This document shows positions 16,374 through 31,687 of a DNA stretch of 64,000 nt, piece by piece. Within the stretch, counting starts at the first letter, position 1; each line of letters opens with the position of its first letter. The stretch lies in assembly GCA_036253035.1 (NCBI GenBank), contig GCA_036253035.1_4123.1; one strand, 5' to 3'. The notes under the pieces were generated by a model. The model worked only from the letters and a program-made list of their open reading frames with translations. It was not told the origin of the DNA and did not search any database. The translations under genes and the position numbers were made by a program. The DNA is from a phage.

Positions 16374-16462
16374 GATAAAACTCCTTAATTTAGGAGGGAG
16401 AACCATTTCCCCCTCTCTATGTAAAACATTATACTTGATTCTAAGTACAATGCAAGTACTTT

Positions 16463-16789
16463 TTACATTTTAATTCCTGGATTCAGGTAACGATGTGATC
16501 CGTATTCTGGATCGGTTTCGGTCCAGTACTGTAAATCGATAGTACCTTTAGCGTTAATCTTGTCTACCAGCTTATTCATCTTACTGTAGACTACTTCGCT
16601 AGGGATGTAGTGTAATCCTTTATTATAGAAGTAGTGGTTAGCTTCACTATCGTTTAAGATATAGCGTGCACCGTTTGCGGTTTGTGCAACAATGAAAGAG
16701 TATTCTACTTCCCGATCATTACCATCAACAGTAATGCGGTCGAAATTGGTACGGATGAAAGCTTTAACGATAGCGATTGAAGTACTCAT
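16463..16789 (-). CDS. hypothetical protein (108 aa)
   Basis: ATG with AGGAG RBS; upstream GC hairpin and TTGACA promoter. Confidence 0.6.
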   Translation of the reverse strand: MSTSIAIVKAFIRTNFDRITVDGNDREVEYSFIVAQTANGARYILNDSEANHYFYNKGLHYIPSEVVYSKMNKLVDKINAKGTIDLQYWTETDPEYGSHRYLNPGIKM

Positions 16790-16889
16790 GGTGAATCTCC
16801 TAACTTTGTGGGCCGTCGCACCATTGCCGCCCTACGAGATACATTATTGCAGTACTGATATACTTTGTCAATACTTTTTCTATTAAAAT

Positions 16890-17105
16890 TTATTTACAGA
16901 ACTGTAGCCCGACTGTGTTCGGATAGTACACACATCTTTCACGCTTACCGCTAAACGCAGATATCCAGGATAATTTGTATGCCACTGGTTCCGGTGCAAG
17001 AGGATTATTTGAATAATCGAGAACTTTAACAATTAAACGGTCCCCAACATACCAGCCAGTTGACTCTTTGATACGGTCGATAATTTCTTGTTTGGTTAAC
17101 GCCAT
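16890..17105 (-). CDS. hypothetical protein (71 aa)
   Basis: Start moved to ATG of MALTKQEI; track GTG start lies inside 5' hairpin. Confidence 0.5.
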   Translation of the reverse strand: MALTKQEIIDRIKESTGWYVGDRLIVKVLDYSNNPLAPEPVAYKLSWISAFSGKRERCVYYPNTVGLQFCK

Positions 17106-17322
17106 TTTATATCTCGCTCTTTTGGAGGTGGGCTGCACTATTGCCGCCCTACGAGATACATTATCTCAGTACTGATATACTTTGTCAATACTTTTTTTGA
17201 AATAGTTTTGAGTACTGGCATTACATCCACCAGCAGATAGTTACTCACCGTTATTAACTATCTTATAGATACTTCTCTGCACCCTGTGGGCTAGTTTTTG
17301 TCTATGCGTATATAATAGCAAA

Positions 17323-17352
17323 GGGACTGACCGGAGTCAATCCCTTTTTTTT
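17323..17352. terminator. intrinsic terminator hairpin (GGGACTGACCGGAGTCAATCCC + T8) with embedded minus-strand TTGACT-N17-TATTAT
   Basis: 9-bp stem with one mismatch, CGGA loop, T-run on plus side; member of 6-copy element family. Confidence 0.55.
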
Positions 17353-17363
17353 ATTCTTTTTTG

Positions 17364-17564
17364 TTAGATGATTCTCCAATCTTCTACCAGGATTTTAATA
17401 TACCGTACCAGTGATTCGAGTGATTCCACTTCCCGATAATCGGTAGCCGTTTGCACTGTACAAGTACAGCCGATCAAGCCATTGCCAAGCTCTTTGATCT
17501 GTACATCGATGCAGTTGGCTTTTGCTTCATTCAGTACTGCAACCAATTCGTTAGCGATTGACAT
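17364..17564 (-). CDS. hypothetical protein (66 aa)
   Basis: ATG with AGGAG RBS; 5' hairpin GCGGGAGAACTATTCCCCCGC and promoter upstream. Confidence 0.6.
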   Translation of the reverse strand: MSIANELVAVLNEAKANCIDVQIKELGNGLIGCTCTVQTATDYREVESLESLVRYIKILVEDWRII

Positions 17565-17652
17565 AATGTTTTACTCCTAAAGGTGCGGGAGAACTATTCC
17601 CCCGCTCTATGTAAAACATTATACATTATCTTGTAGTACTGTCAAATAGTTT

Positions 17653-17910
17653 TTATGAAATATCTTCGATATAGTCGGCCCATGTCATTTGTTCAGTACT
17701 ATCTAGTGCACCAGGATTATTTGGATCAAACCATTCGCCATCCCCTAAGTACATTGCAGCCGCTACCGCTTTATAGCCATTATAGGCGTTATTCCACTGC
17801 ATAGCACGATAGATACGGCCTTTGATTGGTGTCTGTACTGGTAATGTTTTATGGTCTTCTACGTAGGCCATAGCTTGAGGATTTACCCGATATTGTGTGA
17901 ACTGTTCCAT
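17653..17910 (-). CDS. hypothetical protein (85 aa)
   Basis: Start moved to ATG of MEQFTQYRV with AAGGGGA RBS; TTGACA-N17-TGTAAT upstream. Confidence 0.55.
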   Translation of the reverse strand: MEQFTQYRVNPQAMAYVEDHKTLPVQTPIKGRIYRAMQWNNAYNGYKAVAAAMYLGDGEWFDPNNPGALDSTEQMTWADYIEDIS

Positions 17911-17985
17911 TATGTTTCCCCTTGTAGTTAGTAAAGTTATTACATCAGTACTATCACGCATTGTCAATAGTACTGAAATAAAACT

Positions 17986-18210
17986 TTAGATTAGATTATT
18001 GATGCCGTTGATGGTAGACTCGCTTTCTTCTTTCTCCCATTGGCGGTAATACTTCCATGCTTCATGATAGGTGGCGATCAGTTCATCTTTTTGATCCTGA
18101 GTACATGCCAGTACTGAATCACTGTAAGCGGTGTTATAGATAGAATCAAATGATTTCTTCTCTTCTGCCAGGGTAGCTACTTCCCGCATCAGTTCATCAA
18201 AGTTAGCCAT
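17986..18210 (-). CDS. hypothetical protein (74 aa)
   Basis: ATG with AAGGAG RBS; 5' hairpin GGGGGAGGATATCTCCCCC. Confidence 0.6.
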   Translation of the reverse strand: MANFDELMREVATLAEEKKSFDSIYNTAYSDSVLACTQDQKDELIATYHEAWKYYRQWEKEESESTINGINNLI

Positions 18211-18293
18211 TTTAGTACTCCTTATTAGTGGGGGAGGATATCTCCCCCTATGTAAAACATTATACTTTGTTTTACTTACAATGCAAGTACTTT

Positions 18294-18485
18294 TTAAATT
18301 TTATTTCCGATATAGTCCGGCCTGTTCTTTTCGGTCATACGCTTAAGCATTTTTTGCATATGGCTTATTGCTTGTAGTGTATCCTCTTCCAGCGATGAAT
18401 CAAGATAATCAGGATCATTCTTCACCTTACAATGATTATGATAGCGTAGTACTGCCAGTACTTTTTTAACTTCTTCTACTGTCAT
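18294..18485 (-). CDS. hypothetical protein (63 aa)
   Basis: Start overlaps stop of upstream gene (ATGA). Confidence 0.5.
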   Translation of the reverse strand: MTVEEVKKVLAVLRYHNHCKVKNDPDYLDSSLEEDTLQAISHMQKMLKRMTEKNRPDYIGNKI

Positions 18486-18754
18486 AATAAGTATTCCACT
18501 TCGTTTGCTTTCAGGTTAGTATCAATCATCAGTGGTTTTTTGTAGTCCACAAAACGATTAGTTTTCTCGATAGCGAAGCCCATATAATCCAGTTTGCTTA
18601 CAGTACATTCATTCTTAAAAACTTCTTTCGCTGCATTGATGGCTGATTCAATTGATAACCGCCCATCTAAATTAATGTTACCAAATGATCCACCAGCAGA
18701 AGTAGGATTACCGTTCATATCTTTAATAATCATAGTAGCGGAGTAGCTGGACAT
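18482..18754 (-). CDS. hypothetical protein (90 aa)
   Basis: ATG downstream of promoter and hairpin. Confidence 0.6.
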   Translation of the reverse strand: MSSYSATMIIKDMNGNPTSAGGSFGNINLDGRLSIESAINAAKEVFKNECTVSKLDYMGFAIEKTNRFVDYKKPLMIDTNLKANEVEYLL

Positions 18755-18776
18755 AATTTTGTTTCCTTTTATTGGT

Positions 18777-18836
18777 GGGGAGAGCTATTCTCCCCTTGAT
18801 GTAAACTATTATACAGTACTGATATACTTTGTCAAT
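18777..18836 (-). promoter_or_regulatory. early-type promoter (TTGACA-N16-TATAAT) plus 5'-proximal GC stem-loop
   Basis: -35 at 18831-18836, -10 at 18809-18814, hairpin GGGGAGAGCTATTCTCCCC at 18777-18795 about 7 nt after predicted TSS; no U tract follows. Confidence 0.6.
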
Positions 18837-18838
18837 AC

Positions 18839-19060
18839 TTAATTACGTTTAAAATGATATGTACCGTTATCATCCTGTACGCCCCATACTGATTTACCAT
18901 CAACACCAGTGAAGCCGGATTGTAATTCAATATGGAAACCGTTAGCATCAACGACGAAAACTTTTTTATTTTCATCCCGATAGCATTGATATTCTTCACC
19001 TGCTTTAAATGCTGCATCATTCAGAAGATTTGAAGCGTGAACGCAGGTCATAGTAGTCAT
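18839..19060 (-). CDS. hypothetical protein (73 aa)
   Basis: Start moved to ATG of MTTMTCVHAS with AAAAGGA RBS; track extension runs through hairpin. Confidence 0.55.
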   Translation of the reverse strand: MTTMTCVHASNLLNDAAFKAGEEYQCYRDENKKVFVVDANGFHIELQSGFTGVDGKSVWGVQDDNGTYHFKRN

Positions 19061-19248
19061 CGTCTTGATTCCTTTTAGTACCAGGGAGAACCATTTCCCC
19101 CTCTCGATATAAAACATTATACGCTCATTGAGATAGTTTGCAAGTACTTTTTATAAAATAGTTTTCAGTACTGAATACTTATATAATAGATACACTTCCG
19201 CACCCTATGGGTCAGTGAGTTATCTCTCAATGAATATATAATAGCAAA

Positions 19249-19276
19249 GGGACTGACTGGAGTCAATCCCTTTTTT
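19249..19276. terminator. intrinsic terminator hairpin with embedded minus-strand promoter
   Basis: GGGACTGACTGGAGTCAATCCC + T6; same element family as 17323. Confidence 0.5.
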
Positions 19277-19284
19277 AATCTTTT

Positions 19285-19869
19285 TTATCGTGTTATAGTT
19301 ATCGCGTTAACATCACGTTTTTTATAGTACTGATTCCAGATATTGCGGGTTAAACCGTAATCAAGTACTTTAATCAAGCCGTTGCGATCCTGGCCGATAT
19401 TCTGTTTTCTGATATCTCTTATCGTTAGTGTGGATAATGTATCATCAACGTGATTGAGAGCATCAGCGAAATGGTGATGGCGTTCTACCGTATTACGTTT
19501 AATATTGTACTTTAACTCATTGCACGCGTTTACATGCTTTACACTGCCTTTGCTTGCAGTACTCAAACGATCCATAACAATAAACAGATTATCAGGATCG
19601 CATAAATGCATATGCACTTTAGCAAAGTACTGTTTAAGGTGCGGACGGTCATAATCTAAAAAATTCCATACCTTACATTCAGTTTCATTTTGTTCTACAC
19701 CCGCATCACAATTCGCGACCTTAATCACTAACCGATCATTTAAAGCGAATACAATACGGGAAGAACCCGCACCGACGATCTCCAGTCCAGCTAACCGACA
19801 AGCTGAAAGGATCTCTTTGTTGGTTTCCATTGCATGAAGTGAACGGATGAATTTAGTATAGTTACGCAT
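19285..19869 (-). CDS. putative protein kinase-like protein (194 aa)
   Basis: Gly-rich loop GAGSSRIVF, VIKVA lysine, catalytic-loop-like IRDIRKQNI, DFG-like VLDYGL; start moved to ATG of MRNYTKF with AAGGAG RBS. Confidence 0.55.
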   Translation of the reverse strand: MRNYTKFIRSLHAMETNKEILSACRLAGLEIVGAGSSRIVFALNDRLVIKVANCDAGVEQNETECKVWNFLDYDRPHLKQYFAKVHMHLCDPDNLFIVMDRLSTASKGSVKHVNACNELKYNIKRNTVERHHHFADALNHVDDTLSTLTIRDIRKQNIGQDRNGLIKVLDYGLTRNIWNQYYKKRDVNAITITR

Positions 19870-19900
19870 TGTGTTGACTCCTTGAGTTAATGAAACTATA

Positions 19901-20143
19901 TTACAGTACTTTACTATCAATGGCAACTACTTTTTTTACTTGAACTGCGTGGAATACTTCACGCGTATTTTTAGTACTGAATACTTTTGCCGTACCTTGT
20001 TCGACCGCAATACGATAGCGACCGTTAACGTCCACCATATTGATAAAGTCCGGTGTACTGAATGGAGTTACCCGGCATTTAAGAACGGTTAACAGTTCCA
20101 CCAGCGTTGTAGTCTCTTTGATACGTTTTTCTAAAGTAATCAT
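19901..20143 (-). CDS. hypothetical protein (80 aa)
   Basis: Start moved to ATG of MITLEKRI downstream of TTGACA-N17-TACTAT; track extension reads through the promoter. Confidence 0.55.
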   Translation of the reverse strand: MITLEKRIKETTTLVELLTVLKCRVTPFSTPDFINMVDVNGRYRIAVEQGTAKVFSTKNTREVFHAVQVKKVVAIDSKVL

Positions 20144-20196
20144 TTTGTTTTCCCCGTGTTGGTATGCATTCATAGTACTAAAACATTTGAGTACTG

Positions 20197-20451
20197 TCAA
20201 CGTGATATTAGTTTTATTTTTTTATTGTATTGTTGGTGTTCATATAGATTAATTTTTCCAGTACTCTCGATCACTATTCTATTGTTAGTGTCTACATCGA
20301 TAACACGTAGTTTCCCGTTGCTTAACTTCCTGGGTAATAGACTACCATTAATAAACTCATTAGCAAGCTGTACGGCCTTTGTGATGATTCTCTGTGGGGC
20401 TTTATAGTGTACCCGTAATACATTATCGTTTGATAGTTGAACCTTAATCAT
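20197..20451 (-). CDS. hypothetical protein (84 aa)
   Basis: ATG immediately downstream of terminator hairpin. Confidence 0.5.
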   Translation of the reverse strand: MIKVQLSNDNVLRVHYKAPQRIITKAVQLANEFINGSLLPRKLSNGKLRVIDVDTNNRIVIESTGKINLYEHQQYNKKIKLISR

Positions 20452-20463
20452 TTTGTTTATCCT

Positions 20464-20490
20464 ATAAAAAAGGCGGGAACTATTCCCGCC
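20464..20490 (-). terminator. rho-independent terminator (minus strand)
   Basis: GGCGGGAACTATTCCCGCC followed on minus strand by U6; downstream of gene 20514..20909. Confidence 0.6.
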
Positions 20491-20513
20491 GTGTTGTTAG
20501 TACTGCAAAGTTA

Positions 20514-20909
20514 TTAGATAACCTGGCGGCGTTTACTGTATACTGTTACACGGTTTCCTTTACGGTCATGACGGATCTCTTTCTGGTTACGAATCAGTTC
20601 ACTTGGACGCTTAAGGTTTGCCAGGTGATCCGCGTGAGTCCATGCATTTGCGTTAACTGTAACTTCAATATCAGAACCTTTCAAAAAGTCATCTTGAGCG
20701 TTCAGTACTTCAGCCAGTTCTTGAGCTTGCTTTAGTTCTGCTGCTGTAAGTACAGGCTCAGGTGAATTCACAATATCAGAGATCTCTTTGAACTGTACCG
20801 CCCAGCGTTGTCCTTTCGGTGCATCTTTGCCCATGTCTTTAAATGTTTCACCTTCTTCACGGGCAACGATGCGAGCTTGTTCACGGGTAGCGAAGAATTT
20901 AGTAATCAT
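20514..20909 (-). CDS. hypothetical protein; paralog of 33264..33530
   Basis: Shares FATRExARIxAR..TFKDMG..RWAV and C-terminal HDRKGNRVTVYS with 33264 gene; TTGACA-N17-TATAAT upstream. Confidence 0.65.
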   Translation of the reverse strand: MITKFFATREQARIVAREEGETFKDMGKDAPKGQRWAVQFKEISDIVNSPEPVLTAAELKQAQELAEVLNAQDDFLKGSDIEVTVNANAWTHADHLANLKRPSELIRNQKEIRHDRKGNRVTVYSKRRQVI

Positions 20910-21008
20910 GGTGTACATCCTATTAGTTAAGTTAATTAGTACTACAAGTTAGAGTCTATTATAAAGTACTATCTGGGCAATGTCAAATAGTACTTTAAAT
21001 GGATTCTA

Positions 21009-21332
21009 TTACATGTCTTTCTTACGTTTTACATCGTAGTAGCGAACTGTAATTTCTTTGTTGATCTCTTCCTCGATGCGGTGAATAACTTTTTCTTTCG
21101 GGTTGAAACCTATTACAGTTTCTTTAATGATCTCCAAGCCCGTGTATTCGCCTTGTGTACCGTAACCGTAAGTAAAGGTTTCATGTCCCAGGTCTTCCCA
21201 GCGGTCACCAATCAATGCAGACACGTAGCATGAGTGGTAAGTATTGCCGTGGCTATCAGTCCACCGATTAACTTTAATGTCAAAGGAAGTTACAATTTTC
21301 ATTTCTACTTTCTGGGTAAGGATCATAGTCAT
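21009..21332 (-). CDS. hypothetical protein; paralog of 28216..28560
   Basis: Shares GNTY(H/F)S, YGYG and C-terminal DVKRKKD with 28216 gene; AGAGAG RBS. Confidence 0.65.
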   Translation of the reverse strand: MTMILTQKVEMKIVTSFDIKVNRWTDSHGNTYHSCYVSALIGDRWEDLGHETFTYGYGTQGEYTGLEIIKETVIGFNPKEKVIHRIEEEINKEITVRYYDVKRKKDM

Positions 21333-21419
21333 TTTAATTTCTCTCTTTTAGTTAGGAGGGGAACCATTCCCCTGCCTTGATGTAAACTATTATACAGTAC
21401 TAAGATACTTTGTCAATAC

Positions 21420-21695
21420 TTAAGTATTGTAAATGTCGTGAATAGTGATAAAGTTTTTACGACCGTAAACATGTAAATCAGTATCAATGTAGTGCTTATC
21501 AAGTACATCCTCGACGCTTAAAGCCGTGTCGTGAATATCTTCATAGAATTGTGGATCTACAATCTTACTTAAATCATCCGGCGTTAACTTATCATTGAGC
21601 CATTGCACCGCCTGGATATCTGCATCACGTTTCCAGTCTTCCAGGTTAGTAGTCAGTACTTGCTCGATTTCGTTAGCTGTCAGTAGAATCCGCAT
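21420..21695 (-). CDS. hypothetical protein (91 aa)
   Basis: ATG with AAGAGAG RBS; 5' hairpin GTGGGGAACTATTCCCCAC. Confidence 0.6.
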   Translation of the reverse strand: MRILLTANEIEQVLTTNLEDWKRDADIQAVQWLNDKLTPDDLSKIVDPQFYEDIHDTALSVEDVLDKHYIDTDLHVYGRKNFITIHDIYNT

Positions 21696-21784
21696 TTTAA
21701 TTTCTCTCTTTGTTAGGTGGGGAACTATTCCCCACTTGATGTAAAATATTATACAGTACTAAAAACTATTGTCAAACTATTTTA

Positions 21785-21985
21785 TCAAATTGTTTCCCAT
21801 TTCATGTTACCCGCTTTACGCTGTGAAACAGGAATAAACATGTTATTAATGTTACTAATATAACCGACCTGTAAGTCACGCTGTGAACCATACGCCCGAC
21901 TTGCTGCATTTTTAGCACCGCGTTCTGATTTATAAACGCCGCTGGATACTGTAAAGCCTACTACACCGAAAGTAAAATGTTTCAT
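21785..21985 (-). CDS. hypothetical protein (66 aa)
   Basis: ATG with AGAGGA RBS; TTGACA-N16-TATAAT upstream. Confidence 0.6.
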   Translation of the reverse strand: MKHFTFGVVGFTVSSGVYKSERGAKNAASRAYGSQRDLQVGYISNINNMFIPVSQRKAGNMKWETI

Positions 21986-22270
21986 TTTGTATTCCTCTTT
22001 GTGGTTGATGTAAGTATTATACTCGTTTAATTTCTATTGTCAAACTATTTTATCAGGGGAGGTTTTCGTATGTCTTACTCCTGGACTACTTAACGGGGTT
22101 ACTTATTTCGTTCCCCGTCCTGATGTAAAACATTATACTTGATTCTAAGTACAATGCAAGTACTTTTTAAAAATAGTTTTCAGTACTTGATAGTACTAGC
22201 CACCAGCATATAATAGATACATTTATGCACCCTGTGGGTTAGATTGTTTCTATGCATATATAATAGCAAA

Positions 22271-22298
22271 GGGACTGACCGGAGTCAATCCCTTTTTT
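22271..22298. terminator. intrinsic terminator hairpin with embedded minus-strand promoter
   Basis: GGGACTGACCGGAGTCAATCCC + T6. Confidence 0.5.
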
Positions 22299-22306
22299 AA
22301 ATCTTT

Positions 22307-22456
22307 TTAAACTTGTTTTGGGTTGCGATATGTGATAGCGTTCGGGTACATTTGTTTAATGTTATTCCATGCCTGGTTAACATTGTAACCACTTGATCGA
22401 ATCAGTTGGTTACTTCCTACGCCCTGGAACACTACTTCGAATAAGAATTCTTTCAT
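22307..22456 (-). CDS. hypothetical small protein (49 aa, below track cutoff)
   Basis: Manually translated MKEFLFEVVFQG...; start overlaps stop of upstream small ORF. Confidence 0.4.
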   Translation of the reverse strand: MKEFLFEVVFQGVGSNQLIRSSGYNVNQAWNNIKQMYPNAITYRNPKQV

Positions 22457-22623
22457 GCTGCAATCCCCTCTGATTTACCTTTACGCCAGGCGTTAGCCAG
22501 TTCATTACGTTGCCATACATCCAATGCAATGTATAGTTTAGCAGTATCCCCTTTAGGGTATTCGCCAGTAGTGCCTAACCGATAAAACAGATCTTTCAGT
22601 ACTGATAATTCTACTTGGATCAT
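22453..22623 (-). CDS. hypothetical small protein (56 aa, below track cutoff)
   Basis: Manually translated MIQVELSVLKDLFYRLG...; ATGA overlaps on both sides. Confidence 0.4.
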   Translation of the reverse strand: MIQVELSVLKDLFYRLGTTGEYPKGDTAKLYIALDVWQRNELANAWRKGKSEGIAA

Positions 22624-22712
22624 TGTATTACTCCTGATTGTGTTAGTACTTCTACGATGGCATGAATGATCATAAGTACAGCTAACACAACAATCATCGG
22701 ATTCATTTGCAT
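22620..22712 (-). CDS. hypothetical hydrophobic peptide (30 aa)
   Basis: MQMNPMIVVLAVLMIIHAIVEVLTQSGVIQ; AAGGAG RBS 8 nt upstream. Confidence 0.35.
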   Translation of the reverse strand: MQMNPMIVVLAVLMIIHAIVEVLTQSGVIQ

Positions 22713-22729
22713 AAGCTGTACTCCTTCTA

Positions 22730-22942
22730 TTAATCTTTCAGCCAATGATCTTGAATGAATTTTTCACAGAATCCCTGTTTCATAGATTCTAACAGGCGTT
22801 CACGGTGAGCGGCGGCATATTGCTCAGTACTATGCGTTACGCCAGGTTGATAACGTGAAACACCGTCCGGTCCGATATATTGAACATCCCACGGTTTTTC
22901 GTTAGTATCAGACCATTTACGAACGATTAGTTGACCTTGCAT
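22730..22942 (-). CDS. hypothetical protein (70 aa)
   Basis: ATG with AGAGGAAA RBS; 5' hairpin with 8-bp stem; TTGACA-N16-TATAAT. Confidence 0.6.
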   Translation of the reverse strand: MQGQLIVRKWSDTNEKPWDVQYIGPDGVSRYQPGVTHSTEQYAAAHRERLLESMKQGFCEKFIQDHWLKD

Positions 22943-23025
22943 GTTTCTTTCCTCTTAGTGGGGAGAATCATTTCTCCCCTTCATGTAAACTATTATACAG
23001 TACTAGATTACATTGTCAATAGTTT

Positions 23026-23349
23026 TTATTCACCTTGTTTGAATTTAGTTTTCTCCATTGATTCCATGATTGCAACCAATACAGCATGGATCTCACTTAA
23101 CGCGGCATCACTAAAAGCATTAATGAATAGGCAATCATTCTCGCGAATATTTTTAATGTACTTATCAGCAGTGGTTGCGAATTCATTCAACGGCAGATCA
23201 AATGCTTTATCCCATAATGGATGGCGTAACTGTAACAGTACTGGATTATCACGGTCACCAGGTGAGAAAGTGCCTGTAATGAAACATACACCAGGGATAC
23301 TTTCGAATTGACAACGAACTTCTTTTGTGATAGTAGTATGAATATACAT
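23026..23349 (-). CDS. hypothetical protein (107 aa)
   Basis: ATG with AGAGGA RBS. Confidence 0.55.
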   Translation of the reverse strand: MYIHTTITKEVRCQFESIPGVCFITGTFSPGDRDNPVLLQLRHPLWDKAFDLPLNEFATTADKYIKNIRENDCLFINAFSDAALSEIHAVLVAIMESMEKTKFKQGE

Positions 23350-23376
23350 TTATTTTTATCCTCTATTAAATTAATA

Positions 23377-23565
23377 TTACAGTTTATGAATCAATTCTTT
23401 ATCTAAGCGATAGCGAACATTATTGATTGTAACTGCATTGTTTTTAATGCTACGCTGTACAGGTCCACCAGCAATAACAAACGTTGCCTTATTGCCCCGA
23501 ACGATGATAGCACTTCCAGGATTACCAAAATCATCTTGTACTAAAATACTTGATAAGTTTTGCAT
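23377..23565 (-). CDS. hypothetical protein (62 aa)
   Basis: ATG with AAGGAAA RBS; hairpin; TTGCAT-N16-TATAAT. Confidence 0.6.
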   Translation of the reverse strand: MQNLSSILVQDDFGNPGSAIIVRGNKATFVIAGGPVQRSIKNNAVTINNVRYRLDKELIHKL

Positions 23566-23644
23566 TTGTCTTTCCTTGTAGTGGGGAGAACTATTCTCCC
23601 CTTCATGTAAACTATTATACAGTACTTAAAACTAAATGCAAGTA

Positions 23645-24001
23645 CTAGGATAAAATCATTATAGGATATTCACAGTTAATCAGTACTTCAAAACCAAAAC
23701 TTTCATACCATTCTTTAAGATTAAACTCGTTATCTTCTCCCGTATCGCATTCTAAGATGATACAATCTGAATCATCGGCGGCATCAATAAAGGCATTCAT
23801 TAATTCAGTACCTTCACCGTTACCGCGATTATCGGGATCAACATAAAGAGAATCAATAAACGCTACACGATCATAATCAAGATCCGGTGCAACAATGCCA
23901 CGTTTAACAAACCAGTACTGCAATTGTGCTACTTTGCCTTGTACTTGATAGCCAGTGATCTCACCATTGTCTGTAGTACGCGTGATATGTTGTATACCCA
24001 T
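23645..24001 (-). CDS. putative GNAT-family N-acetyltransferase
   Basis: Motif-A-like SLYVDPDNRGNGEGTELMNAFIDAA; TTGACA-N16-TATAAT upstream. Confidence 0.5.
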   Translation of the reverse strand: MGIQHITRTTDNGEITGYQVQGKVAQLQYWFVKRGIVAPDLDYDRVAFIDSLYVDPDNRGNGEGTELMNAFIDAADDSDCIILECDTGEDNEFNLKEWYESFGFEVLINCEYPIMILS

Positions 24002-24064
24002 GATTTCAATCCTCAGTTAAGATATAAAATATTATACACTAACTAACAGCACTGTCAATACTTT

Positions 24065-24322
24065 TTATCTCATAGATCTATGCCAACAATTACGGGGATT
24101 GCGTTTGAATATGCTATCATGATCAGCCTGGCAAGTGATGCAGTACTTACACCCCTTAACGGCCAGGCGGCGATTCTCAGGGATTTTATCGCCGCAGTCG
24201 AGGCAATGTATCAGTGATTCTATTTGTGCGTTAATTTGCGTTCTAGCGTGGTTTACAGCGGCCTGAATCACTGCGTTAATCTCGTCTTGCTCGGCCCCGT
24301 CCTTCGCGAATCCAACAGCCAT
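24065..24322 (-). CDS. DksA/TraR-family C4 zinc finger protein
   Basis: CLDCGDKIPENRRLAVKGCKYCITCQ = C-x2-C-x17-C-x2-C with IP..RR signature. Confidence 0.65.
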   Translation of the reverse strand: MAVGFAKDGAEQDEINAVIQAAVNHARTQINAQIESLIHCLDCGDKIPENRRLAVKGCKYCITCQADHDSIFKRNPRNCWHRSMR

Positions 24323-24485
24323 TATTTTAACCTCATTATAAAAATACTATAGTACTGTAATGCTACAATAATACTACTAGTACTGATTTTATTCAAACCG
24401 TATGATACTACATATTCCCCAGCATTACCACGAATGGTAACGCCTTTGTACTTTCTATATAATTTCAACTACGTTTATTGCCTTT

Positions 24486-24556
24486 GATCAAGATTTGATC
24501 AGAATTATACGCCTTATGCTAAATTGATCCAGTACTTTTTTGATCATTTATTGATC
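24486..24556. promoter_or_regulatory. GATC cluster (5 sites in 71 bp) in long 5' leader
   Basis: GATC at 24486, 24497, 24526, 24542, 24553; two embedded in TGATCA palindromes. Confidence 0.5.
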
Positions 24557-24618
24557 GATATTATATAGTTACATTTGTGCACCCTATGGGTTAGTGACGT
24601 TCTCGTCTTGATGTAAGT

Positions 24619-24647
24619 ATTATGCCAGTACTGGCATAATTTGTCAA
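24619..24647 (-). promoter_or_regulatory. sigma70-like promoter (TTGACA-N17-CATAAT)
   Basis: -35 at 24642-24647, -10 at 24619-24624; leader contains conserved dyad ACCCATAGGGTGC. Confidence 0.5.
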
Positions 24648-24651
24648 TAGA

Positions 24652-24849
24652 TTATTTTAACTTTTTTCTGTCATTGATTAATGCTTTCAGTACTATACTA
24701 ATGATCTGCAATGATTCATCAATGACTATAAAATTATTTTCTTTCATTAGATGATAGTTACCATTGATTGTATATTCTAAGGAGTACTGTTTACGTTTAA
24801 TTTTTGATAATGTTTCTATTTGTTTTTGTACTGATTTCATGCTAATCAT
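24652..24849 (-). CDS. hypothetical protein (66 aa)
   Basis: Start moved to ATG of MISMKSVQ. Confidence 0.45.
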   Translation of the reverse strand: MISMKSVQKQIETLSKIKRKQYSLEYTINGNYHLMKENNFIVIDESLQIISIVLKALINDRKKLK

Positions 24850-24943
24850 TGTTAAACGTCCTGTAACGCATTCTAACGAGTTAAACGGTTTAGTACTGGC
24901 TAAAGGATTAAAGCCCACCAGCGTTAACCAGTGGGCTATAATC

Positions 24944-25087
24944 TTACATCTTGCGGATAATCTTAACAGTATCTTTCACCGATTTACCGTCTTGCTGACA
25001 TTGTTCGATCATCGCGTATTGTTCTGCGGTCAGATCCTCGCCAGTTTTTGCCAGTACTGCGTCGATGAATGAATCCAGTGCGATCAT
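24944..25087 (-). CDS. hypothetical small protein (47 aa, below track cutoff)
   Basis: Manually translated MIALDSFIDAVLAKTGEDL...; AGAGAG RBS; TTGACA-N16-TATAAT upstream. Confidence 0.4.
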   Translation of the reverse strand: MIALDSFIDAVLAKTGEDLTAEQYAMIEQCQQDGKSVKDTVKIIRKM

Positions 25088-25186
25088 TTTGTTTCTCTCT
25101 TAGGTTAAGTTAACTACTGTTTATAAAACTTATTATACAGTACTATCAAACTATGTCAATATCTTTAATAGTACTGGTAATATATT

Positions 25187-25366
25187 TTAGCGGTAGTCGT
25201 CGTATGCTTTATTCACCTGGCGAATGTAACTTTCAAAGGCTTCGTCTACCGTTTCATACTCCCGAACATAATCACCATAGGAAACTACATACATCCCTTT
25301 TTGATCTTCAAACGTCATGATGATAGAATCCAGGCCGATGATTTCAGTTTTTGCGATAATAGCCAT
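25187..25366 (-). CDS. hypothetical small protein (59 aa, below track cutoff)
   Basis: Manually translated MAIIAKTEIIGLDSII...; AAGGAA RBS; promoter upstream. Confidence 0.45.
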   Translation of the reverse strand: MAIIAKTEIIGLDSIIMTFEDQKGMYVVSYGDYVREYETVDEAFESYIRQVNKAYDDYR

Positions 25367-25449
25367 TTTAGTATTCCTTAGTAGTGTAGTTGATAAAAGT
25401 TATTATGCCAGTACTATCAATCATTGTCAATAGTACTGTGATAATATTT

Positions 25450-25662
25450 TTAGTTAATGATAGTCAGTGTAAAATTGTAATCCCCTGCCTGGTATAGTAC
25501 TTTGTCGCCGAATGTACCAACACGTTTCATATTGCAATAGATACCCATAACACTTTTTACATCTTTGATATTCCGAACGCCTGTGATATCCTTGTTGAAA
25601 TTTTCATGATCAGAAAATAAAACTTGTTTTGCATTTTTCAGTACAGTGCAGATATTAGCCAT
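25450..25662 (-). CDS. hypothetical protein (70 aa)
   Basis: ATG with AGAGAG RBS; 5' hairpin GGGGAGAACTATTCTCCCC; TTGACA-N16-TATAAT. Confidence 0.6.
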   Translation of the reverse strand: MANICTVLKNAKQVLFSDHENFNKDITGVRNIKDVKSVMGIYCNMKRVGTFGDKVLYQAGDYNFTLTIIN

Positions 25663-25755
25663 TTTGATTTCTCTCTGTTTGTGGGGAGAACTATTCTCCC
25701 CTTGATGTAACTTATTATACAGTACTATAATCTATTGTCAAACTATTTTTTAATA

Positions 25756-26097
25756 TTATTCAAAATCTTCTGGACCGGACTGATAATCATCTTCACCGTA
25801 TGCACTTTCTAACTTCTCGCCAGTGTGATCATCAGTTAGTGAGTCATCCTCATAGTTCACGTCTACGCCTACAATGTAAAACTGGCTATCGTCTGGATCA
25901 TTGAAATTAATTTTCTGAATGTTTACAATAACGGTATTGATGCCCAGGACACCGCCATCAGCAGTTACAAAGTACTGATATTTTTCACAACCGCCTGAAT
26001 TGAAACCGTAATTAATTTCGGCCCGACCATCATTTAAACGCAGTGCCTGGGCGATGATTTCATTTTCAAAGTTAGATTGAGCAATTGAGATAGTCAT
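25756..26097 (-). CDS. hypothetical protein with strongly acidic C-terminal tail
   Basis: C-terminus rich in D/E (DDDSLTDDHTGEKLESAYGEDDYQSGPEDFE); ATG with AAGGAAA RBS; hairpin. Confidence 0.6.
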   Translation of the reverse strand: MTISIAQSNFENEIIAQALRLNDGRAEINYGFNSGGCEKYQYFVTADGGVLGINTVIVNIQKINFNDPDDSQFYIVGVDVNYEDDSLTDDHTGEKLESAYGEDDYQSGPEDFE

Positions 26098-26281
26098 GAT
26101 TTGTTTCCTTATTACCAGGGGAAACCGTTTCCCCTTTCGATGTAAAACATTATACGCTTATTGAGATAGTTTGCAAGTACTTTTTAAAAATAGTTTTCAG
26201 TACTCAAACATTATATAATAGATACACTTATGCACCCTGTGGGCTAGTGAGCTATCTCTCAATGAATATATAATAGCAAAA

Positions 26282-26309
26282 TGGCTGACCGGAGTCAACC
26301 ACTTTTTTC
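26282..26309. terminator. intrinsic terminator hairpin (element family variant)
   Basis: GGCTGACCGGAGTCAACC + T6. Confidence 0.45.
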
Positions 26310-26537
26310 ATTTATTTTTAGCTTTTAGAATCGCCGCCTTTCGCGTCATGCCTTGCTTGATGTATTCCTGTACTTTCGCTTTACGTGCATTCGCTTTATT
26401 TGCTTTCGTAAACGCCGAACAACTTTTATAATTTAAGCCTGTTGGATTCATTTAAATCACCATAAAGAATAGATAGGTTACTAACAATGCCGCGATCAAT
26501 GCACCGACCAGGGCCGAACTATAGTAAGCTAATGATT

Positions 26538-26690
26538 TCATTTTTTAGCCTGAAAGTAATGTTTAATTTGTGCGGCGGTCAGTGCACAATTACGCAGGAA
26601 GTTTTCTGTATAACTGCGGCGAGTACTGAAAGAGAATTGACCTTTGCCGTTACCGATAGTAACATCAAACCGAGCGTTGTATTGTTTCAT
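26538..26690 (-). CDS. hypothetical small protein (50 aa)
   Basis: Start moved to ATG of MKQYNARF with AGGAGA RBS; track extension runs through hairpin. Confidence 0.5.
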   Translation of the reverse strand: MKQYNARFDVTIGNGKGQFSFSTRRSYTENFLRNCALTAAQIKHYFQAKK

Positions 26691-26776
26691 TTTGATTCTC
26701 CTGTTATTGGGGAGAACCATTTCTCCCCTCTATGTAAAACATTATACGCGTTTAAAAACTAATTGCAAGTATTATT

Positions 26777-27028
26777 TTAAACTTTGTATTTTAAACTTTG
26801 TGCGACTAATTTCGCACGGTCAATCATATTCTGCCATTTTTGGATCTCTTCTGGTAGAAAACGATATTCACCAATTACAATAGTGATACACTGGTCAGCC
26901 TTGTCGATGTATGTGGTATCAATCTCTACTTGAACGGGTACACGTTCGCCGTACTCAGTCCCTGGGATAATGCAATCATTATCATAAGTTACAGTAGTAG
27001 CAGTGTCTTTGATTAAAATTGTTTCCAT
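26777..27028 (-). CDS. hypothetical protein (83 aa)
   Basis: ATG with GAGGAAAG RBS; 5' hairpin AGGGGAACGTTTTCCCCT. Confidence 0.6.
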   Translation of the reverse strand: METILIKDTATTVTYDNDCIIPGTEYGERVPVQVEIDTTYIDKADQCITIVIGEYRFLPEEIQKWQNMIDRAKLVAQSLKYKV

Positions 27029-27110
27029 TATACTTTCCTCGTTAGGTGTAAGGGGAACGTTTTCCCCTTCATGTAAACTATTATACAGTACTAAAAACTA
27101 ATTGCAAGTA

Positions 27111-27257
27111 CTATTTTTTAGATTTACGCAAACTTTCTACCATCTCAGGAGTAAGGCCAGGCGGGTAGGAAACCACTTCATCAACGAAACGTAAAGGGAA
27201 TACCCCAGCGAAAGGTGAACGTGCTTTCTTAGTATTACTCTTTTTTGATGCTTTCAT
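27111..27257 (-). CDS. hypothetical basic small protein (48 aa, below track cutoff)
   Basis: Manually translated MKASKKSNTKKARSPF...; hairpin and TTGCAA-type promoter upstream. Confidence 0.45.
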   Translation of the reverse strand: MKASKKSNTKKARSPFAGVFPLRFVDEVVSYPPGLTPEMVESLRKSKK

Positions 27258-27326
27258 TTCATATTCCTTAATTAGTGGGGAGAATCATTTCTCCCCTTCA
27301 TGTAAAACATTATACGCGTTTAAAAA

Positions 27327-27536
27327 CTAATTGCAAGTACTATTTGAAAGTAAATGCTCATACGCTGCATTAACTACGTTTTCAATAACCGACTGTACAG
27401 AAAGATCCCCCACGTCCTGGCTATAGTAGAAATCGCTTACAGTGGTGTCATCGTATGCAAATACTTTACCAGGTACTGCATCAATCACATACATATTAAC
27501 CTTTAAGATGTCGATCTTATCCTGTACAGTAAGCAT
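27327..27536 (-). CDS. hypothetical protein (69 aa)
   Basis: ATG with AAAGGT RBS, adjacent to upstream stop. Confidence 0.5.
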   Translation of the reverse strand: MLTVQDKIDILKVNMYVIDAVPGKVFAYDDTTVSDFYYSQDVGDLSVQSVIENVVNAAYEHLLSNSTCN

Positions 27537-27541
27537 ATTAA

Positions 27542-27814
27542 TTAACCTTTTAAGTACTGGCTTAAGTAGTCTTGTTGATCTTCGGTGATTGCAGCCATCT
27601 TCCCTAGTACTGGATTGATGATATAATCCCCTGTAACGTCCTGTAACGCATTCTCAGGCGGTTTAACGGCTGGGGTAGCCATAGCCATTGCCTGGACTTG
27701 TTCGACGCTGTAACGCTCATAAAGGCGGCATTCTTCCGGTGTTAACATAGCATCAGTACGCTTCATCGGTTTAATGATGCTTTCGATCTCATTCAGTACT
27801 TGATTAACGTTCAT
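27542..27814 (-). CDS. hypothetical protein (90 aa)
   Basis: ATG with GGGGA RBS. Confidence 0.55.
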   Translation of the reverse strand: MNVNQVLNEIESIIKPMKRTDAMLTPEECRLYERYSVEQVQAMAMATPAVKPPENALQDVTGDYIINPVLGKMAAITEDQQDYLSQYLKG

Positions 27815-27865
27815 GGTATAATCCCCAATATAAGCGGCCTAAATCGACCGCTAACGATGTTTTGA

Positions 27866-28135
27866 TTAATAGGTGTATGGTTGACGCTCAAACAATGATT
27901 GCACGTTGTACGCCCCGCTAATGGGCTTTGCTGGCAAATCAATTTTATATTGTTCACGCTTAAAAATAATAAAACGGCAATTGTTTTTAACATCAAAATT
28001 GATTGAACGTTCCAATAGCTTTCCTTCGTGTACAAATACAAGATAACCGCTTGCTACTTGTTTTGTAGTACTGGTTGCAACCATTGACCGACGAACATGA
28101 GTACCTGCATCGATTAAAGTACTGATATTTTTCAT
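27866..28135 (-). CDS. hypothetical protein (89 aa)
   Basis: ATG with AGAGGA RBS; preferred over overlapping alternate-frame 27811..28041. Confidence 0.55.
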   Translation of the reverse strand: MKNISTLIDAGTHVRRSMVATSTTKQVASGYLVFVHEGKLLERSINFDVKNNCRFIIFKREQYKIDLPAKPISGAYNVQSLFERQPYTY

Positions 28136-28215
28136 TTTACTATCCTCTTAATTTGATTTAATTTCTTTCCCCTATGCAGACACTATATCAAAGTATCTGC
28201 ATAAAGTAAAGCTAA

Positions 28216-28560
28216 TTAAAGATCTTTTTTGCGTTTAACATCAGTTACCGAACTGTAAACAGTGATATTATTGTCACGGCAAAAACGGGAAAGATAAGAA
28301 CCGCGTAAAAACTCTTTATCTTCCATATTAATAACCTTGCTAAATTCTTCCATTGCTACAGTGTCAAAGTGATCCCCGTATCCATATTGGAACGGCACGT
28401 TTACTACTTCAATAAAATTACCATCAATTTCTACGTCTACACTTAAAGAGAAATAAGTGTTACCATATGAAGCCTGGAACCAACGCCGAGCGGCAATATG
28501 TACAACTTCAACAGAAGACAGGTTGATATTTTGTGCTGAGATAGTGTTGATGTTAGCCAT
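28216..28560 (-). CDS. hypothetical protein; paralog of 21009..21332
   Basis: Shared GNTY(H/F)S, YGYG, DVKRKKD; AGAGGAAA RBS; TTGACA-N17-CATAAT. Confidence 0.65.
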   Translation of the reverse strand: MANINTISAQNINLSSVEVVHIAARRWFQASYGNTYFSLSVDVEIDGNFIEVVNVPFQYGYGDHFDTVAMEEFSKVINMEDKEFLRGSYLSRFCRDNNITVYSSVTDVKRKKDL

Positions 28561-28641
28561 TTTAATTTCCTCTTAGTTGTCTTGATAAAATCTATTATGC
28601 CAGTACTATCAATCTATGTCAATAGTACTGTGATAATAATT

Positions 28642-28854
28642 TTACTTACTTTGCTTTGATGCTTTATGTTGTGCAACTGCCATCACTACATCAGTACGAA
28701 CAAAGTTAGCAACCGTATCAGTATAATATTTGATTGCATCGTCAATATCTGCGAACATCCGATACATTCCGCACCATGATACTTTATAACCCGCTTTCAC
28801 TTGTTCAAGTTTAACCAGTGAATTGTTTACTTTGATTTTTGTAATGATAGCCAT
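28642..28854 (-). CDS. hypothetical protein (70 aa)
   Basis: ATG with AGAGGAAA RBS; promoter/UTR is ~85-bp direct duplicate of the one upstream of 28216..28560. Confidence 0.6.
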   Translation of the reverse strand: MAIITKIKVNNSLVKLEQVKAGYKVSWCGMYRMFADIDDAIKYYTDTVANFVRTDVVMAVAQHKASKQSK

Positions 28855-28936
28855 TTTCTTTTTCCTCTTAGTTGTCTTGATAAAATCTATTATGCCAGTA
28901 CTATCAATCTATGTCAATAGTACTGTGATAATAATT

Positions 28937-29080
28937 TTACTTACTTTTTGCTTTCTTTACAGCTTCCACCTGGTCGGCCCACTCTTTACCCCATACTTGA
29001 GCGTTATAGTGATACTGACAAAGAGCAACGCCCCGTTTCAAACCAGTGATAGATTTTTTACCACATTGACAAGTTTTCAT
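28937..29080 (-). CDS. hypothetical Cys-containing small protein (47 aa, below track cutoff)
   Basis: Manually translated MKTCQCGKKSITGLKRGVALCQYHYN...; 5' hairpin and promoter upstream. Confidence 0.45.
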   Translation of the reverse strand: MKTCQCGKKSITGLKRGVALCQYHYNAQVWGKEWADQVEAVKKAKSK

Positions 29081-29166
29081 TTTTAGTTTCCTCTTAGTGG
29101 GGAGAATCATTTCTCCCCTTGATGTAATGTATTATACTTTATCTGATTTACTTTGCAAGTACTTTT

Positions 29167-29394
29167 TTAATTTAATTCATCCAGGCAAAGGATACGATCT
29201 ACACCTAAATCAGTTAAGCTAATAGACGGCACTTGATAGGTTTCAATGTATTCTACACTAGCCCACTGACCGAACTCATTCACCGCCCAGGTATTCATTG
29301 CAAAATGTAATTCCGCACCTTTCTTATTAGTAATTACAGCAACAGTGCTAGAAGTGCCAGTAGTGCCAGATACGTAAGTAATGATGATAGCCAT
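29167..29394 (-). CDS. hypothetical protein (75 aa)
   Basis: ATG with AGAAGGA RBS; TTGACA-N16-TATAAT. Confidence 0.6.
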   Translation of the reverse strand: MAIIITYVSGTTGTSSTVAVITNKKGAELHFAMNTWAVNEFGQWASVEYIETYQVPSISLTDLGVDRILCLDELN

Positions 29395-29463
29395 TTTTTA
29401 AATCCTTCTCAGTAGTTGATGTAAAATATTATACAGTACTTAAAACTATTGTCAAACTATTTT

Positions 29464-29616
29464 TTAAAGACTATCTACGATAGCTGCCGTTTCAATAATA
29501 GACTTACCTTTTTTTGAACATGCAATAACTGCTTTAAATTCCTTTGATGACCAATCTTTCTTGCTGCATACTGACATTACTTGTAACGTGAAACAATCCA
29601 GTTCATAAGTATTCAT
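29464..29616 (-). CDS. hypothetical small protein (50 aa, below track cutoff)
   Basis: Manually translated MNTYELDCFTLQVMSVCSKK...; GAGGA RBS; TTGCAC-N16-TATAAT. Confidence 0.45.
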   Translation of the reverse strand: MNTYELDCFTLQVMSVCSKKDWSSKEFKAVIACSKKGKSIIETAAIVDSL

Positions 29617-29848
29617 CTTTAAATCCTCAGTTAGTTAAGGTGTCTTGCCTTGATGTAACTAATTATACGCCTTTCTCTTAATCGTGCAAGTACTTTTTAT
29701 TACTTTTTGCAAAATACTTTAAACGCTCTCAATCGCATTCTAACGGCCTTAACTCCACCAGCTAGGGCGATGCATCAGATAATCAGTTTAATGCGTTAGA
29801 ATCGATTCTATGAGGTGCTGACGGCATGGAATACTATAGACACAAAAA

Positions 29849-29869
29849 AGCCCACTGTATAAGTGGGCT
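29849..29869 (-). terminator. rho-independent terminator (minus strand)
   Basis: AGCCCACTTATACAGTGGGCT followed on minus strand by U6; downstream of gene 29891..30373. Confidence 0.65.
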
Positions 29870-29890
29870 AGTGATTCAGTACTTTAAATG

Positions 29891-30373
29891 TTATGCTTCA
29901 ATTTTGCGGTGAGATTCGATCCATTCCTCGCGAGTCATACCGCTTTCTTTGATTGCATCCAGTACTACCGCAATGCAGTTACCGCGTACAGGAATCAAAT
30001 GTTCTTCCCCGTTATCAAGGACAACAGTAACACGTTCTTGAATCCATTTTTTAGGCTTAGATTCCGGCTTATCTTCACCGTACTTAACCGCCAGGGCTTT
30101 ATGTGCCATTTCAATAACCACTTCCAGATCTAAACCAGACACCGCCGCCTGAATACTTTCTATTGTTGCTTGCAGTTCTGCTTCACGGGCTTTTTTCTGT
30201 TCTTCCAGTTCTGCTACCTTTTTGGCTTGTAGTTCTTTCGCTTCACTGTAAGCAATGTTAAAATTGTTGCGTACTGCTTTCATGGTATCATTATCCAGGT
30301 CAGCCAGCAATTCAGCAGCAATAACAGTATCGTTAGAAATCAGTGCTTTCAGAAATGATTTTACATTAGCCAT
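29891..30373 (-). CDS. hypothetical coiled-coil-rich protein (160 aa)
   Basis: Start moved to ATG of MANVKSFL with GAGGA RBS; long conserved leader upstream. Confidence 0.6.
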   Translation of the reverse strand: MANVKSFLKALISNDTVIAAELLADLDNDTMKAVRNNFNIAYSEAKELQAKKVAELEEQKKAREAELQATIESIQAAVSGLDLEVVIEMAHKALAVKYGEDKPESKPKKWIQERVTVVLDNGEEHLIPVRGNCIAVVLDAIKESGMTREEWIESHRKIEA

Positions 30374-30574
30374 TTTATAAATCCTCAATTAAAGTTTAAG
30401 TTAGTTTATCAAAGTTTGTTTGACGTGTCCAGTTTTTCATTCGACTTACTGGCGGTCTACTTAATGTTCCCCGTCTTGATGTAATACATTCTACGCTTTT
30501 CCCTGGTAATGTCAACTACTTTTTTAAAACTATTTTCAAAGTATACCAGTACTACGATACTACAAAAACAAAAA

Positions 30575-30595
30575 AGCCCACTGTATAAGTGGGCT
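30575..30595 (-). terminator. rho-independent terminator (minus strand)
   Basis: Identical hairpin to 29849 copy, U-run on minus strand; downstream of gene 30613..30912. Confidence 0.65.
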
Positions 30596-30612
30596 AGTGA
30601 TTCAGTACTATA

Positions 30613-30912
30613 TTATAAACAATTAATTACGCCAGTGAATGTAACTTTCTCTGTATCCATTACAGTGACAGAACCGCGTTTACTTTTTGCATCGTAATAG
30701 ATGGTCGTGCTACCCTGATCATCTTCTTCATGGTACGGGCCATTAGCAAACATTGCAGGGGCCAGTTCCAGGGATTTGGTAACGATCTCAGCCGTTTCCT
30801 CGTTAGTCATTGCAACAGTGCACTGAATGAATTTTTCTTTCGGTACATCAACGGAAGCGTTAACAGCGAAAGAGGAAACAGATAAAGCCAGGGCGATGAT
30901 TGCAGTTTTCAT
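30613..30912 (-). CDS. putative secreted/periplasmic protein with N-terminal signal peptide
   Basis: MKTAIIALALSVSSFAVNA = basic n-region, hydrophobic core, AxA-like cleavage site; TTGATA-N16-TATAAT. Confidence 0.6.
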   Translation of the reverse strand: MKTAIIALALSVSSFAVNASVDVPKEKFIQCTVAMTNEETAEIVTKSLELAPAMFANGPYHEEDDQGSTTIYYDAKSKRGSVTVMDTEKVTFTGVINCL

Positions 30913-31053: not shown

Positions 31054-31059
31054 ACTTAC

Positions 31060-31670: not shown

Positions 31671-31687
31671 TAGATAATCCTCAGTAC

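Follow-up and report, generated by a model that had tools for sequence, protein, structure and literature searches.

Why should an intrinsic terminator stand directly before a start codon, in the midst of co-oriented early genes of a phage? The question arises in a 64,000-nt stretch of phage DNA (contig GCA_036253035.1_4123.1; hereafter the window), where an original prediction, made from the letters alone, saw at positions 20464–20490 a minus-strand terminator abutting a gene that could then be expressed only by read-through, and called the arrangement attenuator-like. The 1.3-kb stretch around the site matches 36 phage records, all of them 310–390-kb jumbo phages and, wherever a genus has been assigned, members of Asteriusvirus; Escherichia phage 121Q comes closest, with 98.1% identity. 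The minus-strand genes here are counterparts of 121Q genes 303–308, and the homologous region lies within the long terminal repeat in Muenster, CBB and vB_Ec-M-J.

Is the terminator itself convincing? Read directly, the minus strand at 20490..20472 is GGCGGGAATAGTTCCCGCC, which forms a perfect 8-bp stem with six G–C pairs around a TAG loop (GGCGGGAA-TAG-TTCCCGCC), and a run of six T residues adjoins its 3′ side at 20471..20466. Taking intrinsic terminators to have a G+C-rich stem of 5–14 bp, a loop of 3–8 nt and a U-tract of at least 4–6 residues within 0–2 nt of the stem, we find here such a stem and loop, the adjoining U-tract and a location after a stop codon on the coding strand, so that, judged by its sequence, the element is a canonical intrinsic (Rho-independent) terminator. 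A consensus terminator scan detects the site independently (8 pairs, 6 of them G–C, a 3-nt loop, tail TTTTTTATAG), and the hairpin folds at −13.1 kcal/mol alone and at −14.5 kcal/mol with short flanks; the perfect U6 terminator of the original prediction is thus confirmed. Under a strict definition (T6 directly behind a perfect stem of 7 bp or more, 5 or more of them G–C), the window holds four loci (20490, 29868 and 30594 on the minus strand, 56071 on the plus strand) against a mean of 0.01 in 100 dinucleotide-preserving shuffles of the window, which argues that the terminator at 20490 is real rather than a chance match. Two of the others, at 29868..29844 and 30594..30570 on the minus strand, are identical canonical terminators (AGTACTGAATCACTA-GCCCACTTATACAGTGGGC-TTTTTTGT), the former followed by at least 230 nt without any minus-strand ORF of 35 aa or more. 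A bidirectional role for the 20490 element was considered and rejected, as its plus-strand tail GTGTTGTTAG is poor and there are no plus-strand genes nearby. No tRNA, tmRNA or known RNA family was detected in the window, and Rfam riboswitch and leader matches were likewise absent.

The hairpin lies between two genes on its own strand. It begins 23 nt 3′ of the TAA of the upstream gene, a gp304 homologue (20514..20909, minus strand; 131 aa, phrog_8127), whose conserved parts, an N-terminal beta-alpha-beta-beta domain and a basic C-terminal beta-hairpin, are joined by a variable acidic linker, and which has no match in Pfam, NCBIfam or PDB. Downstream, the T-run is separated from the ATG at 20451 by ATAGGATAAACAAA (20465..20452), an interval of 14 nt rather than the 13 nt first proposed, in which a Shine–Dalgarno-like AGGA (20460..20463, minus strand) stands 8 nt 5′ of the ATG and is predicted to stay unpaired when the read-through RNA folds. 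This ATG opens the gp305 homologue (20197..20451, minus strand; 84 aa), which matches Pfam PF24732, a ParE-like toxin domain, with 40.4 bits where the curated cut-off requires 24.4 (E 3e-10), as well as phrog_1525, and has homologues in 70 phage records. The gene is therefore genuine, as had been assumed, and its start codon is fixed by the N-terminus M-[IK]-K-V-Q-L, which is conserved across genera. The family is small, with 19 representatives at E ≤ 1e-3 among 1.8 billion, and all 24 homologues compared share R58, H72 and Y75. The K64-1 and Muenster homologues are annotated as YafQ-like ribonuclease toxins (HHpred evidence is quoted in the Muenster record). An AlphaFold2 model of the protein (pLDDT 88.8) finds, by Foldseek, top PDB matches that are almost all YoeB, YafQ, ParE, RelK and HigB toxins, albeit weak ones (E 0.08–0.5), and the modelled protein is accordingly placed in the RelE/ParE toxin fold; it may be toxic. 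Searched against PDB sequences, the toxin-like profile matched only a designed protein, a hit that we regard as spurious.

How, then, would gp305 be transcribed? Upstream, the gp304 homologue has a sigma-70 promoter (20958..20986, minus strand; TTGACA-17-TATAAT) that matches the hexamer consensus at 12 of 12 positions, and this is the last of four consecutive 12/12 consensus promoters (22043, 21775, 21416 and 20986) with no terminator among them, the 20490 element being the first canonical terminator that transcripts from any of them would encounter. The RaK2-like phages, among which 121Q and its relatives are counted, have RpoD-type early promoters with UP-like elements and employ a T4 gp55-like sigma factor for their late genes (PMC5259590, on phage CBB), and early genes with RpoD-type promoters would be read by a host polymerase that responds to intrinsic terminators. 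The next promoter downstream is that of the gp307 homologue (20172..20200, minus strand; TTGACA-17-TACTAT), whose −35 hexamer TTGACA has the TGA stop of the toxin-like gene embedded in it (20197..20200); in 121Q this promoter is present twice, around an extra gene 306. A stop codon nested in the TTGACA of a following promoter is also seen in the unrelated phage ECML-606-1 (L039 945-950).

Between the T-run and the ATG there is no promoter, as originally noted; this is true but trivial, since 14 nt leaves insufficient room for one. A start site might instead lie in the T-run itself if a weak promoter, TTGCAG-18-AATAGT, overlapped the hairpin and gave gp305 a transcript of its own that bypassed the terminator. 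Although TTGCAG resembles the alternative −35 hexamer of this phage (TTGCAA), the consensus scan detects no promoter over the hairpin, the 18-nt spacer is G+C-rich, and the candidate −10 reads ATCAGT in most Asteriusvirus genomes, with only two of six consensus matches. Being weak and not conserved, this hidden promoter was rejected, and we consider it highly improbable that it drives the gene. A T4-like late promoter was also entertained: the sequence ATAAACA, one mismatch from the ATAAATA consensus reported for CBB (PMC5259590), lies 4 nt before the ATG, too near for its mRNA to include that codon. As gp305 has no promoter of its own, any mRNA that carries its ribosome-binding site and ATG would derive from polymerases that have passed the hairpin, and the protein is probably made only from such read-through, which lends support to the dependence originally proposed.

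A further element marks the approach to the hairpin. The palindrome AGTACT occurs at 20500..20505 (minus strand), 9 nt 5′ of the terminator, where it is invariant across 10 Asteriusvirus genomes, and it also stands 5′ of the K64-1 hairpin; it is similarly placed at the other promoter-less hairpins at 29868, 30594 and 32335. Around the gp304 promoter (20958..20986), copies occur 5′ of the −35, within the spacer and 3′ of the −10. Over the whole window AGTACT is 11.7-fold over-represented (237 copies against 20 expected, mostly at 16000–64000), in contexts that include promoter spacers (AGTACTgTATAAT), the alternative −35 context (aaAGTACTTGCAA) and hairpin stems (CCAGTACT...AGTACTGG), and it is found 8–9 nt 5′ of every promoter-less hairpin or terminator. 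Our literature search found no description of this motif.

Has selection kept the terminator? The six outer pairs of the stem (GGCGGG/CCCGCC) show a single change among 10 Asteriusvirus genomes, a C>T in TH47 that yields a G·U pair and so preserves pairing on the sense RNA only, while the T-run is 6 or 7 residues long in all ten. The four variable positions of the hairpin are all loop-proximal (AATAG, AATAT, ATCAG or TTCAG). A stem and T-run that are retained while changes gather near the loop form the pattern expected of a terminator hairpin under selection. Moreover, a terminator is already annotated at the homologous site, directly 5′ of the homologous gene, in the records of G17, UE-S1 and the distantly related Cronobacter phage GAP32; these annotations are ARNold-based, that of G17 reading ‘putative transcriptional terminator, -15.10, ARNOLD’.

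Taken together, these observations suggest, as the probable reading, a constitutive intrinsic terminator that insulates and throttles a potentially toxic gp305 between co-oriented early genes. Specifically, host sigma-70 polymerases would initiate at 20986 and at the further promoters 22043, 21775 and 21416, transcribe gp304 and meet the 8-bp GC stem and U6, where the majority would release their RNA at about 20467. The read-through minority alone would yield mRNA with the AGGA and ATG of the 84-aa RelE/ParE-like gene, and gp305 would thereby be shielded from the summed flux of the upstream promoters and held to a small and constant share of gp304 expression. That termination occurs at 20490, and with what efficiency, we infer from these features, as we do that low gp305 expression is a selected outcome; literature searches found no Asteriusvirus transcriptome.

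The word attenuator may also imply regulation, whereby a phage or host factor, or an RNA switch, would permit read-through and make gp305 a delayed-early gene in the manner of lambda N at tR1. A promoter-less gene behind a strong-looking terminator, the conservation of that arrangement, and a loop core (GAAUAGUUC) that is shared near many early transcript starts and could bind a protein would all suit such control. Folding argues against a switch: at −24.1 kcal/mol the terminator outranks its nearest competitor, at −14.3, by some 10 kcal/mol, its closing pair forms with a probability of 0.91–0.99 in the ensemble, and the sole upstream complement, CGCCGCC, falls within coding sequence, where PBECO4 and TH47 show a synonymous C>A change in it. 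Nor does the site resemble a 5′ leader, as a complete 131-aa gene lies between promoter and hairpin, and a ribosome at the gp304 stop, 23 nt off, would with its usual footprint not reach the stem. The loop sequence varies even inside the genus, and no Rfam riboswitch or leader matches anywhere in the window. We therefore think regulated read-through quite unlikely. Of the attenuator-like arrangement, the co-orientation of the terminator with the genes and the promoter-less gene behind it stand, whereas the regulated sense is unsupported because no antiterminator structure was found.

A different view of the hairpin comes from its neighbours, as the early minus-strand region (~16–35 kb) consists of stereotyped repeated units. 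Each has an A-rich tract, TTGACA or AGTACTTGCAA, a 16–17-nt spacer, TATAAT, some 12 nt, a stem-loop, a Shine–Dalgarno sequence and an ATG, and the stem-loops share a layout of a G-rich arm, a GAA-T/A-R-G-TTC core and a C-rich arm. The pattern GGGRRAATAGTTYYCCC, allowing up to 3 mismatches, occurs 30 times in the window against 0.68 expected. Twenty family hairpins fold at −10.9 to −15.0 kcal/mol and end 14–22 nt before a start codon (20 nt for the 20490 copy), and six of these twenty contain G·U pairs, which form on the sense strand only. About 20 stem-loops of the form GGGGAGAA-TAG/TGG-TTCTCCCC, together with variants with covarying stems, can be traced over 16394..33892 on the minus strand of the window (for example 21735..21717, 23601..23583, 25701..25683 and 32012..31989); they lie 8–13 nt after TATAAT, in the 5′ leaders of early mRNAs, without a U-tract, and similar leader hairpins are present in K64-1. 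A near-identical core (GCGGGAATAGTTCCCGC) stands at 32008 behind an ordinary TATAAT. A −10/−35 hexamer lies upstream of 18 of the 20 family copies, the exceptions being 20490 and 32335, and only the 20490 copy has a T-rich tail (7 of 8 residues, against 0–3 of 8 in the other 19). A hairpin close to a start codon is thus the local norm, and what is special at 20490 is the U-tract and the missing promoter. The second promoter-less hairpin, AGTACTgaatcaaTGGCGGGGAATGGTTCCCGCC at 32335..32316 (minus strand), lies 21 nt before an ATG and has no U-tract; being promoter-less, the gene behind it would need transcription from upstream.

Could the stem-loop, then, serve chiefly as an RNA element, acting in stability, processing, translation or protein binding, or as a 3′ stabilizer of the gp304 mRNA, with termination secondary? 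The 20 similar hairpins set 14–22 nt before start codons, with that at 20490 in register at 20 nt, and the sense-only G·U pairs in six of them would fit such a function. Against it as the chief role, the 20490 copy is the sole family member bearing a U-tract, this tract is U6 or U7 in all 10 Asteriusvirus genomes and is found again in GAP32, and what is established about intrinsic terminators leads one to expect E. coli polymerase to terminate where a U-tract is present. One role need not exclude the other, and since the other 19 family hairpins lack a U-tract, a further RNA-level role of the stem-loop is probable and may apply at 20490 as well; that such a role comes first there we think unlikely, even given the comparison across genera that follows.

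Beyond Asteriusvirus, gp304-like and gp305-like genes remain adjacent at 40–68% protein identity. The pair is conserved in Alcyoneusvirus (K64-1, Muenster, phiKp_21), in Munch-like phages, in Mimasvirus (GAP32, CBB, XbC2), in Eneladusvirus (fHe-Yen9-04, BF) and in several uncultivated jumbo genomes. A 10-sequence alignment served as the query in the search for related loci. A RNAalifold consensus across genera contained only 3 pairs, as MAFFT had left stems and loops of differing length out of register, and our comparison therefore rests on individual folds. In each of these genera a GC-rich hairpin lies between the gp304-like stop and the gp305-like start, with no room for a promoter, and its stems differ (GGCGGGAA, AGGGGCTT, GGGGGA, GGGGCAT, GGGGGC and CAGGGGG): the junction has kept the structure but not the stem sequence. 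In GAP32 and Munch such hairpins are absent from most other intergenic regions, and the hairpin is to that extent specific to the gp304/gp305 junction. The U-tract has a patchier distribution: it is canonical only in Asteriusvirus and in GAP32 (T6, 13 nt 5′ of the ATG), intermediate (TTTATT) in XbC2-like phages and fHe-Yen9-04, and weak or absent in K64-1, Munch, L025, BF, CBB and L033/L036, about half of the related genera. The feature conserved clade-wide is therefore the stem-loop, and not necessarily termination, and a hairpin that is conserved where its U-tract is not would suit an RNA element. Nor is the arrangement obligatory: in Xanthomonas phage XaC1 (L014 1159-1843) the toxin-like gene precedes its gp304-like neighbour, the reverse of the usual order, and the two are still adjacent, each with its own promoter-like site and with no GC hairpin between them.

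It is tempting to see in the two genes a single module, conserved among RaK2-like jumbo phages, of the terminal-repeat early region, in which an early RelE/ParE-like ribosome-dependent RNase, as toxin or host shut-off effector, and a partner or antidote of novel fold would have their ratio hard-wired by the terminator rather than by translational coupling, or in which read-through would be gated by a phage factor that recognizes the leader stem-loops. We regard this as a speculative and rather doubtful extension of the throttling terminator. For an antitoxin identity of the gp304 homologue, sequence and model give no support: it has no family match, and its AlphaFold2 model (pLDDT 74, pTM 0.35) has no meaningful Foldseek match. 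Two genes 3′ of the toxin-like gene there appears to be an early kinase: the gp308 homologue (19285..19869, minus strand) has weak, sub-threshold protein-kinase Pfam matches, and its homologues are annotated as protein kinases in K64-1, Muenster and several Asteriusvirus records.

Distant gp305 homologues also occur in unrelated, smaller phages, where no gp304-like neighbour is found beside them. In one of these, the 95-kb phage ECML-606-1 (L039 945-1006), a hairpin (CCTCACC-AACCCAA-GGTGAGG) with T6 lies directly before the ATG of the toxin-like homologue; its 3′ arm holds the Shine–Dalgarno sequence, and the start site of a TTGACA-17-TAATAT promoter would fall in its 5′ arm. With this layout, transcripts arriving from upstream would either end at the hairpin or reach the gene with a masked ribosome-binding site, a fate that those begun at its own promoter would escape.

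The leader units are not the only repeated cassettes in the region. A fusion of terminator and promoter starts at 17347, 19273, 22295 and 26305 on the minus strand of the window, and is also seen at L004 2275-2360, L007 2730-2820 and L006 2200-2290. It consists of an A-run, a hairpin that carries a −35 (TTGACT) in its 5′ arm and then TATTAT; between it and the next promoter comes a non-coding stretch (..CCCACAGGGTGCATAAATGTATCTATTATAT..) that is conserved. The cassette is conserved in K64-1, GAP32 and Munch and could be a short early non-coding RNA; it has no match in Rfam.

How does the arrangement at 20490 compare with systems already known? Terminators within operons are familiar from E. 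coli, in the attenuator between rplL and rpoB and in T1 before dnaG in rpsU-dnaG-rpoD, and the likeness is close, with a GC stem and U-tract between co-oriented genes and a promoter-less downstream gene expressed at a lower level by read-through. An intra-operon terminator that throttles its downstream gene is therefore an already known design, and the homologous terminator was already annotated in relatives; what differs is the setting, in the early region of a jumbo phage, with stacked consensus promoters and a repeated family of leader hairpins. If termination does take place, the site would be a clean natural case of a phage intra-operon terminator insulating a potentially toxic early gene from such promoters, and it could be put to use in better operon and expression annotation of therapeutic jumbo coliphages and as a short, naturally conserved terminator part. 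In the delayed-early control of phage lambda, the terminators tR1 and tL1 are overcome by N-nut antitermination; gp305 is likewise a promoter-less gene behind a terminator in an early phage operon, but at gp304/gp305 neither a nut-like site nor an alternative structure was found.

With the type II toxin–antitoxin systems (RelBE, ParDE, YefM-YoeB, DinJ-YafQ) the pair shares the predicted RelE/ParE fold of gp305, with its conserved Arg, His and Tyr, and a small conserved partner gene directly upstream, the adjacency being kept even in the inverted order of XaC1. It differs from them in that the gp304 partner lacks a recognizable antitoxin or DNA-binding fold, in that the two genes do not overlap but are separated by 62 nt that hold a terminator, and in that distant gp305 homologues in other phages have no partner. 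What would point to a toxin–antitoxin pair is thus the modelled fold and the adjacency.

The closest parallel for the cassettes themselves is with the PeSLs (promoter-early stem-loops) of T4-type phages (Arbiol et al., 2010, PMC2839356; Comeau et al., 2014, PMC4122927). A PeSL comprises a strong sigma-70 promoter, an AT-rich upstream region, a polyG/polyC stem-loop and a Shine–Dalgarno sequence with ATG, and its stem-loop was proposed, with a lacZ reporter test, to act as a terminator or attenuator against over-expression from upstream cassettes (PMC2839356). The window cassettes share the AT-rich element, the sigma-70 promoter, the polyG/polyC stem-loop, the Shine–Dalgarno sequence and the ATG, and they too are repeated among small genes of unknown function, with one gene indel bracketed by cassettes. 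Specifically, a 219-bp gene, gp306, is present in several phages, 121Q and G17 among them, but absent from this window and from EC.P1, and ~60 bp of promoter and leader stand as a direct repeat on either side of the 276-bp indel (window 20200 against 121Q L001 1845-2173), which suggests PeSL-style recombination between regulatory cassettes. Such mobile regulatory cassettes, described in T4-like phages and not in RaK2-like jumbo phages, would thereby be extended to the RaK2/121Q jumbo group. The geometry differs, as the PeSL stem-loop lies mostly between the −35 and −10 or over the −10, whereas in the window it follows the −10 by 8–13 nt in type A and contains the −35 in type B. At 20490 the G-tract/C-tract stem-loop followed by AGGA and ATG is likewise PeSL-like, but no −35/−10 hexamer lies upstream and a U-tract is present: the copy before gp305 is, in these terms, a PeSL-like cassette without its promoter half and with a gained U-tract.
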